A stretch of DNA of 30,614 nucleotides from a virus (taxonomy: Duplodnaviria > Heunggongvirae > Uroviricota > Caudoviricetes): IMG/VR virus record IMGVR_UViG_2724679239_000009, positions 1-30,614 of that record, one strand, 5' to 3'. Positions 20,815 to 26,784 of this stretch are shown here, in pieces. The notes beneath the pieces are model-generated. The model did not search any database, was not told the origin of the DNA, and saw only the letters and a list, made by a program, of their open reading frames with translations. The translations under genes and the position numbers were made by a program. Every line of letters starts with the position of its first letter. Position 1 is the first letter of the stretch.

Positions 20815-20970
20815 TTACTCCTCAGGTTCGTAAGCTGTGAAGACAGCGACCTCCGTCTGGCCGGTTCGGATTCGTACCTCGCAGAGGTCTTTCCTCGTTA
20901 CCAGTGCCGTCACTATGACGGTTAAACAGATGACGATCAGGGCGATTAACATCGCCTTTTGCTGCTTCAT
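20815..20970 (-). CDS. hokD: Hok-family membrane toxin (HokD/RelF-like, 51 aa)
   Basis: Hand translation MKQQKAMLIALIVICLTVIVTALVTRKDLCEVRIRTGQTEVAVFTAYEPEE, with AAGGAG RBS. Matches the Hok family and HokD as I recall it. Too short for the supplied ORF track. Confidence 0.85.
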   Translation of the reverse strand: MKQQKAMLIALIVICLTVIVTALVTRKDLCEVRIRTGQTEVAVFTAYEPEE

Positions 20971-21341
20971 AGCCTGCTTCTCCTTGACCTTTTGGTCCGT
21001 AAGAGGCTAATCTCTATGTGTCGCATAGATATGGCCTCAGATTAATGTTAAGCGTCTTGCAGGACGCGTAATGTTAACTGGGGCTTTTCTCTATCTGCCT
21101 TTTGGTGTTCATGCCTGAGGCAGATAGCCTCAAGCACCCACAGCAATTCTACTTAACTCCCGCCACCTCGCCAATATAAAATCAATCAGAAAGGCGATCC
21201 ATAAGAACAATAGCAAGACAATAAATTGCCACTACAGCCGCAATAGCCAGCGCGCATTTGAGAACCAGCACGATAACCTCCTGTATTGGACGTACACCAG
21301 CTCTGATAAATATGAGGCTGCCTCTTTAACTTCGCATTGCG

Positions 21342-22741: not shown

Positions 22742-23149
22742 CTAGGCATATCCCTGATAGAACGCCAATACACGCTGCATAACTTCGCTCTTCCGGCACT
22801 CGCGACAGATTATGTTCATACGCCTGTCGTAGCGGCGTATTTCTCCGTCGGGTAATGTCCAGATAAGGCCCGGATCAACCACAACAGGTTTCTTCACCTT
22901 TGCCCTCGAGAGTTTTTTGCGGGCGTTTTGCCAGTCCTTACGAGCCCGTTCTGACGGGAACACCCCATAGCCAGAGTGATATACATCACCACTGGCAACC
23001 AGCTCTCTGGCAAGAACGCTCATCAGATATCTTGTCGCACCTGTTTTAGCTTCCAGTTGCCGTAACGTCTCACGACCGCTCTGGCGCACGAGTTCCACCA
23101 CCTGTCCTTTAATTTTTTCCCGCTCTTCCTGTGTAAATACTTTTGCCAT
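22742..23149 (-). CDS. Ren-like protein
   Basis: The C-terminus ...ICRECRKSEVMQRVLAFYQGYA resembles the lambda Ren C-terminus as I recall it, and the gene follows the replication gene as ren does in lambda. Confidence 0.45.
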   Translation of the reverse strand: MAKVFTQEEREKIKGQVVELVRQSGRETLRQLEAKTGATRYLMSVLARELVASGDVYHSGYGVFPSERARKDWQNARKKLSRAKVKKPVVVDPGLIWTLPDGEIRRYDRRMNIICRECRKSEVMQRVLAFYQGYA

Positions 23150-23189
23150 AAGTCCTCCTGAACATTACTTTATGCCCTAAAATCACCAC

Positions 23190-24155
23190 TTATCCCCTGA
23201 AACCAGGCGGAATTTCGGTATCCGGTTCAGAAATATGATTCACACAACACTGTACAGGTGAACGCCCCAGGCGGATGACCAGGTCGTCCCATTTTTCGCG
23301 AAGCTTTGACGGGCTCATGATGTTTTTTACCCAGAATGGATCTCGCTGTACCCGACCAAACATTTCGCAAATTTGTCTGTGGCTTCTGCCATCCAGCATC
23401 CGCATTGTGCGCACGTCATTGGCCCATGCGGTCCAGTTTGGTTCTTTCGGTCGCGTGATCTCGCCATCATCGCTGGCAGCCTGCTCGTAAAGACTCACGA
23501 TTCGTCCCCAGATCCACTGTGCGCACGCCAAATCTTCCTGACTTCCCCACTGGCGTTTTTTCGCACTGAACACAACCGCGTCAGGGTGTCGGGTTAAAAA
23601 ATCCTGTTCAGCCGTCTGCGGGTCCGGTTGCGAAGCTTCCGGACGAGAAGTGTTTTTATTCTCTGTAGTAATCTCTGTTGTATTCTCTGTAAGATCATCA
23701 GGCCATTTTGACCCGATGACATTGGGTCGTTTTGAACCAATGGAGCGTGCCATTTTGACCTCTTCCATCGTGTCATTTTGACCCGATGGAGCGGCGCATT
23801 TTGACCTGATGGATTCGCTCACTTTGCCACCATCTAAAAGCTCACTCTCGTAATTAATCGTGTAAAAATTAGTCATATCACGCTTTGATTTGTTGAGCTT
23901 TTCGCAACGCAAAAGCCCCAGCGTTTTCAGACTTGCAAATGCGCGTTTTAACGTTGACTCTGACCAGAACGGGAACTGTTCCAGCCATTGTTCTGTTGTG
24001 TTATAAATCCAGCGAACCCCGTCACATTCCATACCGGAACTGGTATCTCTCAACCAGTAATGCAACTGCTGCAACACAATGGCTTCATTTAAGCCAATCT
24101 TCATCGCAAGCTGTGTGTTTATAACCAGTGGGCGTTCAGCAAAAAGAAGGCTCAT
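23190..24155 (-). CDS. Replication initiator (O-like replisome organiser) with internal origin iterons
   Basis: N-terminal DNA-binding-like region, low-complexity linker (ENTTEITTENKNTSRPEASQPDPQ), and an iteron array inside the coding sequence. Start placed at MSLLFAERP (24155) to avoid a 74-nt overlap; 24209 is the alternative. Confidence 0.65.
   Translation of the reverse strand: MSLLFAERPLVINTQLAMKIGLNEAIVLQQLHYWLRDTSSGMECDGVRWIYNTTEQWLEQFPFWSESTLKRAFASLKTLGLLRCEKLNKSKRDMTNFYTINYESELLDGGKVSESIRSKCAAPSGQNDTMEEVKMARSIGSKRPNVIGSKWPDDLTENTTEITTENKNTSRPEASQPDPQTAEQDFLTRHPDAVVFSAKKRQWGSQEDLACAQWIWGRIVSLYEQAASDDGEITRPKEPNWTAWANDVRTMRMLDGRSHRQICEMFGRVQRDPFWVKNIMSPSKLREKWDDLVIRLGRSPVQCCVNHISEPDTEIPPGFRG
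23704..23813. repeat. Origin-type iterons: five copies of CATTTTGACC(N)GATGGA-like repeats at 23-24 bp spacing
   Basis: Copies start at 23704, 23728 (degenerate), 23751, 23774, 23797. They are followed at 23660-23694 by three TCTCTGT repeats at 12-bp spacing. Confidence 0.8.
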
Positions 24156-24657
24156 AATTCCATCCAGCTTTTTGTTGGTATTGCTGACGATACGCATGCT
24201 TGAAAGCAATAGCTTTTTCTATAAGCTCGTCAGTCTCACGTTCCACAACAGATGGATCCGCAAAAAGCAGCCCGGACTCCACCACATCACCATATTCTTT
24301 GTTTAACCCGGCGATCATGTACGTAATGCTTTTTCCGTCAGTAATTTCACAATACAACCTGAAATCGCTGATCCGGATAGCCTCCATAATTGCCGGAATC
24401 AGCGCCGTGAATTTTTCCCGCTTATCCCTGGTGTCGATAGCTTTCCAGCGTTCGAATATCTTCACCCGGTTAACGCCCAACGCCCGTTGATCAACCTCGC
24501 CATCATTAAACGTGACGCGTTGAACATCGATGTTCGGGCGTTCTTTCAGAGCCCAGAATGCTTCCGTGATTAATATCGTCGCCTGCTCCTGTGTCATTCC
24601 TGGTCGGCATACCCAGGCATCCAGAGCCTCACAAACCTGTTCAGGGGTGATTTTCAT
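24136..24657 (-). CDS. YdaT-like / cII-position protein (173 aa)
   Basis: Sits between the cro-like dicC and the replication initiator. The family call is tentative. Confidence 0.4.
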   Translation of the reverse strand: MKITPEQVCEALDAWVCRPGMTQEQATILITEAFWALKERPNIDVQRVTFNDGEVDQRALGVNRVKIFERWKAIDTRDKREKFTALIPAIMEAIRISDFRLYCEITDGKSITYMIAGLNKEYGDVVESGLLFADPSVVERETDELIEKAIAFKHAYRQQYQQKAGWNYEPSFC

Positions 24658-24871
24658 TGTTCAACCGCCCCGCCCGCTTTGCCTTACGATATTCGTCATA
24701 AACTTTGGGGTCGTACTGAAGTTCCCCGCCGGATGCATCTTGCAGGCGCATCGCGCGACCTTCAGGTACTAGCACCCCTTTCCAGCTATAAAGCGAAGCC
24801 AAACGAATACCAGCAGCTTGTGCAAGTTTTGTTTTTGAACCGAAATACAAAAGTGCGTCAGTTTTAAGCAT
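24641..24871 (-). CDS. dicC: DicC-like Cro-type regulator
   Basis: 76 aa, MLKTDALLYFGSKTKLAQAAGIRLASLYSWKG..., divergent from dicA. Recognised as Qin DicC-like. Confidence 0.8.
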   Translation of the reverse strand: MLKTDALLYFGSKTKLAQAAGIRLASLYSWKGVLVPEGRAMRLQDASGGELQYDPKVYDEYRKAKRAGRLNNENHP

Positions 24872-24954: not shown

Positions 24955-25362
24955 ATGGATACAAAAAATTTAACCATTGGCGAACGCATTAGATATCGCC
25001 GAAAAAACCTCAAATACACCCAAAGGTCTCTTGCTAAAGCCCTGAAAATTTCTCATGTATCGGTTTCACAATGGGAACGGGATGATAGCGAACCTACAGG
25101 AAAGAATCTTTTTGCCCTCAGCAAAGTACTGCAGTGCTCGCCAACATGGATTCTATTTGGCGATGAAGACAAGCAGCCATCACCACCTATTGAGGAGCCA
25201 GTTGCTCTATCCCCCAAAGAACATGAGCTCCTTGAGCTTTTTAATGCATTGCCTGAATCAGAACAGGATGCTCAGCTCACCGAGATGCGCGCCCGAGTAA
25301 AAAATTTCAACAAACTCTTTGAAGAGTTATTAAAAGCCCGTCAACGAACAAACAAAAGATAA
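24955..25362 (+). CDS. dicA: DicA-like repressor (Xre-HTH, no S24 peptidase domain)
   Basis: MDTKNLTIGERIRYRRKNLKYTQRSLAKALKISHVSVSQWERDDSEPTGKNLFALSKVLQCSPTWILFGDED... matches Qin DicA as I recall it. Confidence 0.85.
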   Translation: MDTKNLTIGERIRYRRKNLKYTQRSLAKALKISHVSVSQWERDDSEPTGKNLFALSKVLQCSPTWILFGDEDKQPSPPIEEPVALSPKEHELLELFNALPESEQDAQLTEMRARVKNFNKLFEELLKARQRTNKR

Positions 25363-25447: not shown

Positions 25448-25527
25448 TTTTGCTTACATCAAGACACCGCACGGTGTTCTCAGCAAACAGTTCCGCTACC
25501 CCGGCGTTAAGGGGAAATGAGGTCAGC

Positions 25528-25680
25528 ATGGATACTATCGATCTTGGCAACAACGAATCTCTGGTGTGCGGCGTGTTCCCAAACCAGGACGGTACGTTCA
25601 CCGCAATGACGTATACCAAAAGCAAAACGCTTAAAACCGAATCTGGCGCGCGTCGCTGGTTAGCCAGAAACACTGACTGA
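25528..25680 (+). CDS. ydfA: YdfA-like small protein (50 aa)
   Basis: MDTIDLGNNESLVCGVFPNQDGTFTAMTYTKSKTLKTESGARRWLARNTD; first gene after dicA, as in the Qin dicB operon. Start taken at the internal Met of the listed ORF. Confidence 0.6.
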   Translation: MDTIDLGNNESLVCGVFPNQDGTFTAMTYTKSKTLKTESGARRWLARNTD

Positions 25681-26066
25681 TGAGGTTGACGATGGAATTT
25701 AAAGATTTACCAATACCATTCCAGGAAATGGCAGCGAATATAGTTCGTTCTCAATTGGCTACTCTTGACCTGAGTACCGTAGAAAAAGAAACCATCGATA
25801 ATATATCCGGTAACGTGCGCCGAGCCTTTATCGGGCTATACAAAGAGAAGCAGCTCTCTGATAACCAGGATTTACATGAAAAATACTTTCTGGAATTAAT
25901 GGACATCATTAATAAGGGATTTGGCCTGTTAATGAAAAAGAAAGGGATTCGAATAGACCCCCTTGAAAATCACTTTACAGCAAGCAGTATTAATTCCTGT
26001 GATTTAAAGCATCACACATCCGATGGGAAAGTTGAATCCACCTATAAAATATCAATTAATCATTAA
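25680..26066 (+). CDS. Hypothetical protein (128 aa)
   Basis: Start overlaps the ydfA stop (TGATG). No recognisable motif. Confidence 0.5.
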   Translation: MRLTMEFKDLPIPFQEMAANIVRSQLATLDLSTVEKETIDNISGNVRRAFIGLYKEKQLSDNQDLHEKYFLELMDIINKGFGLLMKKKGIRIDPLENHFTASSINSCDLKHHTSDGKVESTYKISINH

Positions 26067-26370
26067 TTTATTCACGGGTGAGGTAGAGTGCGTGCGCCGG
26101 ACACGGGTGAGCATCCGGCACTGACAGTTTACTGAAAGGATATTTCCCTGAAAAGTCAGACCATAACGCGAAAGCGCACGGCGAGGTAGCTGGTTCATAG
26201 ATAGCCTGTCGTTAAATTTTCGTCGACCGTGCGCTTCCGGTTGTGGCAACCCGCGAAATGGCGCGGCGGTAAGTATGGCGGGGTTATTCCTTCCCCGTTG
26301 AGGACACCGGGTTGTCAGGTTGACCATACGCTTAAGTGACAACCCCGCTGCAACGCCCTCTGTTATCAAT

Positions 26371-26426
26371 TTTCTGGTGACGTTTGGCGGCATCTGTTTG
26401 CCCATGAACTGATGTCCGCCCTTTTT
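26371..26426 (+). ncRNA. dicF: DicF-like small RNA with a divergent central and 3-prime region
   Basis: TTTCTGGTGACGTTTGGCGG matches the DicF 5-prime 20 nt as I recall it. It is followed by stem ggcggcatc...gatgtccgcc and a T5 run. Located upstream of dicB as in Qin. Confidence 0.55.
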
Positions 26427-26595
26427 AAAGTGAATTTTGTGATGCGGTGAATGCGGCTAAGCGCACGCGGAACAGTTAAAGCTAAAAACAGTGTTATGGG
26501 TGGATTCTCTGTATCCGGCGTTAATTGTTAACTGGTTAACGTCACCTGGAGGCACCAGGCACCGCATCACAAAATTCATTGTTGAGGACGCGATA

Positions 26596-26784
26596 ATGGA
26601 AACGTTATTACCAAACGTTAATACGTCTGAAGGTTGTTTTGAAATTGGTGTCACTATCAGCAATCAGATATTTACTGAAGATGCCATTAATAAAAGAAAA
26701 CACGAACAGGAACTGCTAAATAAAATATGCATTGTTTCGATGCTGGCCCGTTTACGTCTGATGCAAACAGGATGCAGGCAATGA
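26596..26784 (+). CDS. dicB: DicB-like cell division inhibitor (62 aa)
   Basis: METLLPNVNTSEGCFEIGVTISNQIFTEDAINKRKHEQELLNKICIVSMLARLRLMQTGCRQ. Start taken at the internal Met of the listed ORF. Confidence 0.8.
   Translation: METLLPNVNTSEGCFEIGVTISNQIFTEDAINKRKHEQELLNKICIVSMLARLRLMQTGCRQ

Follow-up and report, generated by a model that had tools for sequence, protein, structure and literature searches.

A natural dicF allele with a conserved 5′ end and a replaced hairpin body upstream of dicB in a prophage

The dicF locus of the prophage

We analyzed a 30,614-nt stretch of DNA from a Caudoviricetes record (IMG/VR IMGVR_UViG_2724679239_000009, positions 1 to 30,614), hereafter called the window, and focused on a short element upstream of the cell division inhibitor gene dicB. 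The element and its neighbors are listed below with their coordinates in the window and their strand.

24641-24871 (-), dicC, encoding a Cro-like regulator (NCBIfam NF007282 DicC, 155.1 bits)
24955-25362 (+), gene for a dicA-type repressor of the operon (NCBIfam NF007257 DicA, 235.7 bits)
25450-26066 (+), two open reading frames of 76 and 128 aa at the position of ydfABC (from the list of open reading frames)
26371-26426 (+), DicF-variant small RNA of 56 nt including a U5 tail, sequence TTTCTGGTGACGTTTGGCGGCATCTGTTTGCCCATGAACTGATGTCCGCCCTTTTT
26431-26449 (+), 5′ arm of a 19-bp perfect inverted repeat, 100% complementary to 26560-26578
26560-26578 (+), 3′ arm of the 19-bp inverted repeat, in the dicB leader (from a repeat search)
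26596-26784 (+), dicB, intact, encoding a cell division inhibitor of 62 aa (NCBIfam NF049927, 132.6 bits)
26781-26984 (+), open reading frame of 67 aa at the position of ydfD, overlapping the dicB stop codon (from the list of open reading frames)
27065-29545 (+), gene for a RecE-like exonuclease, a downstream gene of the early-left operon (partial match to NCBIfam PRK09709, exodeoxyribonuclease VIII)

DicA, DicC, and DicB all scored above the NCBIfam cut-offs, the gene order is as in Escherichia coli K-12, and DicB of the window is 87% identical to its K-12 counterpart. The open reading frame that overlaps the dicB stop codon is placed like the DUF1482/YdfD genes of K-12, EDL933, and 86-24, and the exonuclease gene takes the same place in the gene order of K-12, EDL933, and Sakai. 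NCBIfam searches gave no match for the ydfD-position frame (26781-26984) or for either of the two frames at the ydfABC position (25450-26066). Upstream of the small RNA, the operon carries different cargo in the window, K-12, DCE7, and the O157 prophage, also in those cases in which the small RNA allele is shared.

The 56-nt element lies downstream of dicA and dicC and 170 nt 5′ of the intact dicB. This location matches the dicF site in the Qin prophage of K-12, where the small RNA DicF (RF00039) likewise follows the ydfC-position genes, precedes dicB, and is under the control of dicA and dicC. We aligned 290 nt around the element with the dicF locus of K-12 BW25113. The flanks were found to be ~98% identical: the 41 nt upstream of the element are the same in both sequences, and the ~200 nt downstream, which reach into dicB, differ at six positions. 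Within the element, nucleotides 1-20 match K-12 DicF at 20 of 20 positions, and the terminal CCGCCC followed by T5 is shared as well. In contrast, the hairpin body differs in 15 of 27 alignment columns, including a 2-nt deletion, and the variant RNA is 2 nt shorter than K-12 DicF. The 21 differences are concentrated in a replaced block that spans about 26391-26415 (15 of 27 columns inside the block vs 6 of 266 outside; Fisher p = 1.4e-13). In both position and sequence, the segment 26371-26426 (+) is thus homologous to dicF and amounts to an allele of this gene. A preliminary description of the locus, which was made from the letters, had proposed that the first 20 nt equal the DicF 5′ end and that the body departs from the canonical one. 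The alignment bears out both statements, and the canonical DicF sequence on which they relied proved to be correct.

The Rfam DicF model (RF00039), which had been suggested as a check, supported this assignment in part. A local search returned a full-length match at 26372-26421 with an E-value of 4e-8, but its score of 43.5 bits lies below the gathering threshold of 48 bits, compared to 76.7 bits for K-12 dicF. A default Rfam scan at the gathering threshold is therefore silent at the element and did not call DicF in the window, and threshold-based annotation with Rfam overlooks the variant copy. No feature is annotated at the variant site in any of the records that we inspected.

Predicted fold and processing signals

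Folding of the 56-mer with ViennaRNA resulted in a free 5′ end of 15 nt, a hairpin, and a terminal U5 run, as follows.

26371-26385 (+), 5′ pairing region (seed) UUUCUGGUGACGUUU, identical to K-12 DicF and unpaired in both the minimum free energy and the centroid folds
26386-26420 (+), terminator hairpin with a body unlike that of K-12 DicF (fold energy -17.3 kcal/mol, z = -2.8)
26422-26426 (+), T5 run that completes the intrinsic terminator, read from the sequence and identical to K-12

K-12 DicF has the same architecture with a fold energy of -15.9 kcal/mol, so that the hairpin of the variant is slightly more stable. In the predicted fold, the exposed loop lies within the replaced region. 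The stem and T-run that the preliminary description had seen ahead of dicB were recovered in this analysis, with dicB intact from 26596. A rule-based terminator scan, which needs an uninterrupted stem with a loop of 3-8 nt, missed the hairpin on account of a bulge and a mismatch in the stem; the assignment as a terminator rests on the thermodynamic fold. The sole sequence variant of the allele that was observed, in IMGVR_UViG_2802429253_000016, carries C in place of the bulged T of the 3′ arm (GATGTCCGCC to GATGCCCGCC), and the fold prediction leaves this position unpaired. U-tails serve as the Hfq-binding module in other Hfq-dependent small RNAs, and by analogy the U-tail of the variant may bind Hfq as well.

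For K-12, RNase III processing to a 72-nt form of DicF has been described (PMC5069750, PMC9438474). In the window, 72 nt counted from 26371 end inside the 5′ arm of the inverted repeat at 26431-26449. Judging from its location, the 19-bp inverted repeat is probably the RNase III stem that would give the 72-nt DicF form. The stem is identical in K-12 and, together with the identical 41 nt upstream, the sequence contexts of the RNase E and the RNase III processing sites are kept. By analogy with ydfABC-dicF of K-12 (PMC9438474), the small RNA would form the 3′ end of the transcript of the two open reading frames at the ydfABC position. Our model places the allele in the early-left operon of a lambdoid prophage, directly 5′ of dicB and under the control of dicA and dicC. 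As in K-12, the RNA would come about both through termination at its own hairpin and through processing of the operon transcript by RNase E and RNase III.

We additionally found a sub-threshold match to the Rfam family STnc100 (RF02076) at 26419-26628 (+), with 39.0 bits compared to a gathering score of 47. The match covers the whole spacer between DicF and dicB as well as the start of dicB, and the inverted repeat (26431-26449/26560-26578) brackets the spacer. Similar sub-threshold matches are present in K-12, Rac, and Stx-type loci, and the conserved structured leader 5′ of dicB or kil may represent an uncurated relative of STnc100.

Predicted pairing with DicF targets

DicF is a textbook example of a prophage small RNA with two separable pairing regions. 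In K-12, the 3′ region pairs with ftsZ and pykA, while the 5′ end pairs with xylR (Balasubramanian et al. 2016, PMC5069750). The 3′-region mutants DicF9 and DicF21 lose control of ftsZ and keep control of xylR; DicF21 additionally loses control of pykA, which is also lost in the 5′-region mutant DicF3 (PMC5069750).

For both alleles, we calculated windowed duplex energies together with opening energies against the region from -100 to +60 of ftsZ, pykA, manX, and xylR, and we used 77 K-12 mRNA starts (-80 to +60) as a background set. This windowed, accessibility-corrected scheme took the place of whole-length RNAduplex predictions, which were dropped because the duplexes were unrealistically long. 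Scanning the whole ftsZ mRNA by hybridisation energy alone was set aside as uninformative as well, since pairings of the GC-rich arms dominated the result. The following energies and ranks were obtained.

manX: K-12 DicF -14.0 kcal/mol (rank 1 of 77; nt 35-54 with +34 to +53, hybridisation -33.4), variant -5.3 kcal/mol (rank 38)
xylR: K-12 DicF -13.4 kcal/mol (rank 2 of 77; nt 6-15 with +10 to +19), variant -13.4 kcal/mol (rank 1)
pykA: K-12 DicF -11.7 kcal/mol (rank 3 of 77; nt 26-43 with -19 to +1), variant -9.4 kcal/mol (rank 6)
ftsZ: K-12 DicF about -7.1 kcal/mol (rank 22 of 77; nt 32-53 with -29 to -7, hybridisation -22.9), variant +0.6 kcal/mol (rank 75)

The three best-ranked mRNAs for K-12 DicF are validated targets, which supports the prediction method. 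The validated interaction of K-12 DicF with ftsZ ranks just 22 of 77, and the sensitivity of the method for ftsZ-like interactions is limited to this extent.

Pairing with xylR is fully retained in the predictions. Nucleotides 6-15 of the seed are perfectly complementary to xylR +10 to +19, and the energies of -13.4 to -13.6 kcal/mol equal those of K-12 DicF. The replaced segment, ACUCCGUGACUGCUCUGCCGCC, is the one that supplies the predicted pairing of K-12 DicF to ftsZ (-29 to -7), pykA (-19 to +1), and manX (+34 to +53), and this complementarity is lost in the variant. For the 3′ region of the variant, no complementarity to the ftsZ ribosome-binding site was predicted in the accessibility-corrected model; the best ftsZ site between -100 and +60 (-1.7 kcal/mol at +49 to +60) is off the ribosome-binding site and is shared with K-12 DicF. 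K-12 and EDL933 have the same ftsZ leader, so that the lost pairing is not made up for by co-evolution of the target. The pykA site of the variant, with -9.4 kcal/mol, is a 5′ site common to both alleles. Since DicF3 also loses pykA control, pykA may need both regions of the RNA, and residual regulation via the retained 5′ site is possible. For pchA, a target of DicF in enterohemorrhagic E. coli (EHEC), the predictions are equal for both alleles, though the pchA fold is unstable across window sizes, and the site for the variant is weak (-6.9 kcal/mol).

In the model, the pairing check for the three mRNAs named in the preliminary description thus came out as xylR kept, ftsZ lost, and pykA reduced to the shared 5′ site. 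The accompanying suggestion that the target set may have changed agrees with these predictions and with the published genetics of the 3′ region (PMC5069750). Loss of ftsZ and retention of xylR is the behavior of DicF9 and DicF21, and the same behavior is predicted for the window allele. Whereas these mutants carry laboratory substitutions of a few nucleotides, the window allele is natural and has its whole second pairing region exchanged. The element is homologous to DicF yet departs from it in two features, since it stays below the Rfam gathering threshold and lacks the predicted antisense complementarity to ftsZ. It was the property of a division inhibitor acting by ftsZ antisense pairing that gave DicF its name.

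The body changes could still be neutral, with ftsZ, manX, and pykA repressed through alternative or imperfect pairing. Such a functionally equivalent DicF would be in line with the unchanged 5′ end, terminator architecture, and operon context, with the modest rank that even the true ftsZ interaction reaches in K-12, and with the pykA site at the shared 5′ end (-9.4 kcal/mol). We regard equivalence as quite unlikely, however, as the segment predicted to pair with all three mRNAs is the replaced one (ACUCCGUGACUGCUCUGCCGCC), the predicted energies lie at background or worse (ftsZ +0.6, manX -5.3), and engineered substitutions at this place abolish control of ftsZ or pykA in K-12 (PMC5069750).

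Conversely, the new 12-nt loop and the arm UUUGCCCAUGAA might act as a second seed for new mRNA targets. The exposure of the loop within the replaced region would suit such a gain of function, and so would the coexistence of the allele with canonical copies, of which EDL933 has three in addition to the variant. However, no candidate emerged among the 77 mRNA starts: ftsB (start AUGGGUAAA), considered as a target of the new loop (complement of AUGGGCAAA), ranked 15 of 77 with -7.7 kcal/mol and was rejected as unsupported, and the pchA site is weak. The window contains no complementary site either; neither the new loop nor the seed has an antisense partner within it beyond what chance would give. 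In addition, the loop is like the loops of terminators upstream of kil (see below), suggesting that it was inherited and not selected as a new seed. We consider a newly acquired second seed very improbable.

The best explanation, which we consider likely on the basis of the pairing model, is a DicF with a single seed. This RNA would be made and processed like the canonical one and would repress targets of the 5′ seed, but not ftsZ, manX, or pykA, and division inhibition would be left to DicB. According to this explanation, the retained unpaired 5′ region of 15 nt would repress its targets, for example xylR. The replacement of the hairpin body would have removed the second pairing region (K-12 DicF nt ~26-54), without which the ribosome-binding sites of ftsZ and pykA and the coding region of manX would no longer be recognised and FtsZ synthesis would be unblocked. 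If this is true, metabolic and virulence regulation by DicF would be uncoupled from division inhibition, and a ready natural separation-of-function allele would be at hand to assign DicF phenotypes to the individual seeds. On the present computational evidence, we consider it plausible that the allele has this property.

The seed also has perfect complements in its own operon. Positions 26376-26384 are complementary to 26538-26546 in the dicB leader (9 nt), and positions 26380-26387 to 26611-26618, corresponding to dicB codons 6-8 (8 nt). Both complements are identical in K-12 and, by our estimate, occur at about chance level for the region of 351 nt. DicF could pair with the mRNA of its own operon at these sites.

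Origin and distribution of the allele

In order to obtain information on the source of the new hairpin body, we compared the locus by alignment with the equivalent kil-upstream regions of Rac-SA53, PhiR5_2, and Shigella phage 75/02 Stx. The 3′ arm of the variant, CTGATGTCCGCC, matches the kil-upstream hairpins of Rac-SA53, CP-933R, PhiR5_2, and Shigella phage 75/02 Stx at 12 of 12 positions. The 5′ arm, GGCGGCATC, is of the Rac type, and the start of the loop, TTTGCC, is similar to the Stx type. Two single-nucleotide differences downstream of the hairpin are common to the variant and the kil-type loci and set them apart from K-12 Qin; about 45 nt downstream are identical. In global alignments, the hairpin came closest to the Stx type (84% identity), followed by K-12 (74%) and by the Rac type with its longer loop (71-73%). 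The new body thus resembles the Rac- and Stx-type hairpins upstream of kil rather than a product of random drift.

The hairpins upstream of kil or kilR (Rac-SA53, CP-933R, PhiR5_2, and 75/02 Stx) share the arms GGCGG(A)CATC / CTGATGTCCGCC and the downstream sequence with the window element. Unlike the latter, which has the seed and precedes dicB, they are without the DicF seed TTTCTGGTGACGTTT and precede kil. With the Rfam DicF model, the Rac-SA53 hairpin scored 41.1 bits, which is also below the threshold, and the PhiR5_2 hairpin 29.5 bits. These similarities are suggestive of a mosaic allele, in which a Qin-type DicF 5′ end is joined to a kil-type early-left terminator, and recombination within the shared TTTGGCGG is a plausible route. 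As the hairpin segment is short (84% vs 74% identity), an origin by recombination is suggested rather than proven. Most likely, homologous early-left terminators of different lambdoid phages would have recombined to give the allele. Such exchanges of terminators between phages could rewire the regulon of a small RNA in one step, in a kind of modular seed swapping.

The occurrence of this hairpin class without the seed upstream of kil indicates a role of the hairpin that is independent of DicF. The window element might accordingly be essentially an early-left operon terminator, with a DicF 5′ sequence that was carried along by recent recombination and does not give rise to a consequential trans-acting RNA. 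The allele shows almost no sequence variation and hence no signature of selection on the seed, and its Rfam score is near that of the seedless Rac-type hairpin (43.5 vs 41.1 bits), both of which are compatible with a mere terminator. Nevertheless, we consider this unlikely. K-12, the DicF of which is a stable Hfq-binding small RNA (PMC5069750), has an identical or near-identical RNase E-side context, seed, U-tail, and RNase III stem, and the variant hairpin is even slightly more stable than its K-12 counterpart. Moreover, O157:H7 is reported to produce four DicF orthologs under microaerobic conditions (PMC10448788), a set that may or may not include the variant. We thus continue to favor a DicF that is produced and acts through its single 5′ seed.

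Among 5426 complete E. coli genomes, exact copies of the 56-mer were found in 290 (about 5%). In 288 of these 290 genomes, the identity is at least 99%, and the allele is almost invariant. The carriers are mostly O157:H7 or O55:H7 strains, including EDL933, 86-24, and ATCC 43894, and non-O157 strains, such as a pig isolate and an O121 strain, carry it too. In 86-24 and EDL933, the allele is located in the ompW-adjacent prophage that carries paa. In Sakai, it is found in prophage Sp9 (1,762,217-1,762,272), where the record has no feature. An identical allele is present in the type strain of Escherichia albertii. In IMG/VR, no intermediates were seen among 124 + 21 loci with conserved DicF ends, which form two discrete classes: the first class comprises the K-12 type and its point variants, the second the variant, with 18 exact copies and one single-base variant. 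Where downstream sequence was recovered in IMG/VR, the variant allele is always followed by an intact dicB. The near-invariance of the allele fits recent spread by phages as well as it fits selection, and its conservation is no evidence of function.

EDL933 (NZ_CP008957.1) contains five DicF-like loci, namely three copies of the K-12 type (in CP-933M, a prophage at 1.894 Mb, and CP-933P), the variant, and a seedless Rac-type hairpin upstream of kilR in CP-933R. The three copies of the K-12 type share with the variant the position upstream of dicB and the same or nearly the same seed. Unlike the Sp9/ompW-adjacent copy, which is the variant, they have 0-3 point changes and keep the ftsZ-pairing body. 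DicF of EHEC has been treated as a multi-copy gene, the copies of which are assumed to be equivalent. The literature describes four DicF copies or orthologs in O157:H7 (PMC7873438, PMC10448788), and a table of non-coding RNAs of EDL933 lists four Rfam DicF entries (PMC5331693). Three of these entries map cleanly onto EDL933 CP008957 (CP-933M, CP-933R, and CP-933P), the coordinate systems being different; the fourth is most simply, if not certainly, the copy at 1.894 Mb. It appears that the table includes the Rac-type hairpin and that the variant is not clearly among its four entries. The comparative survey of 2016 took only sequences that are >99% identical to K-12 dicF (PMC5069750), and a full-text search showed the variant sequence to be absent from open-access papers. 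The allele is nonetheless common, and its sequence has long been public in the genomes of the best-studied EHEC strains.

These findings lead us to propose, tentatively, that O157:H7 and related strains may harbor functionally diversified DicF paralogs. Among these, the Sp9 copy would be a recombinant with a single seed that acts only on targets of the 5′ seed (xylR, possibly others) and has lost control of ftsZ, manX, and pykA. We hold this extension to be quite possible, with less confidence than the reading of the allele itself. If a widespread copy is indeed without the ftsZ/manX/pykA half, the results of deleting and complementing dicF in O157:H7 would have to be interpreted separately for each copy.

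Regarding the prophage as a whole, the region comprising 23029-24766 and 25457-30614 has no end-to-end match among the complete E. coli genomes of the collection, the best hit reaching 83% coverage at 96.6% identity. Over 23029-24766, the window shares 99.9% identity with a contig of the E. albertii type strain NBRC 107761, compared to 92.7% over 25457-30614; the prophage is therefore a mosaic. Judging from these comparisons, the host of the prophage may not be a typical E. coli.

Two further features were identified outside of the operon. A full-length sok antitoxin RNA is located at 20968-21139 (-) (Rfam RF01794, 107.5 bits vs a gathering score of 59), which indicates a hok/sok-type toxin-antitoxin module in the prophage; in the equivalent prophage of 86-24 and EDL933, hokD lies between paa and the DUF968/rusA genes. 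Adjacent prophage tRNA genes at 15610-15763 (-) encode tRNA-Gly(TCC) and tRNA-Thr(TGT). The compared O157 prophages have tRNA-Ile and tRNA-Arg at the equivalent position, so that the tRNA cargo differs between these prophages and the window.
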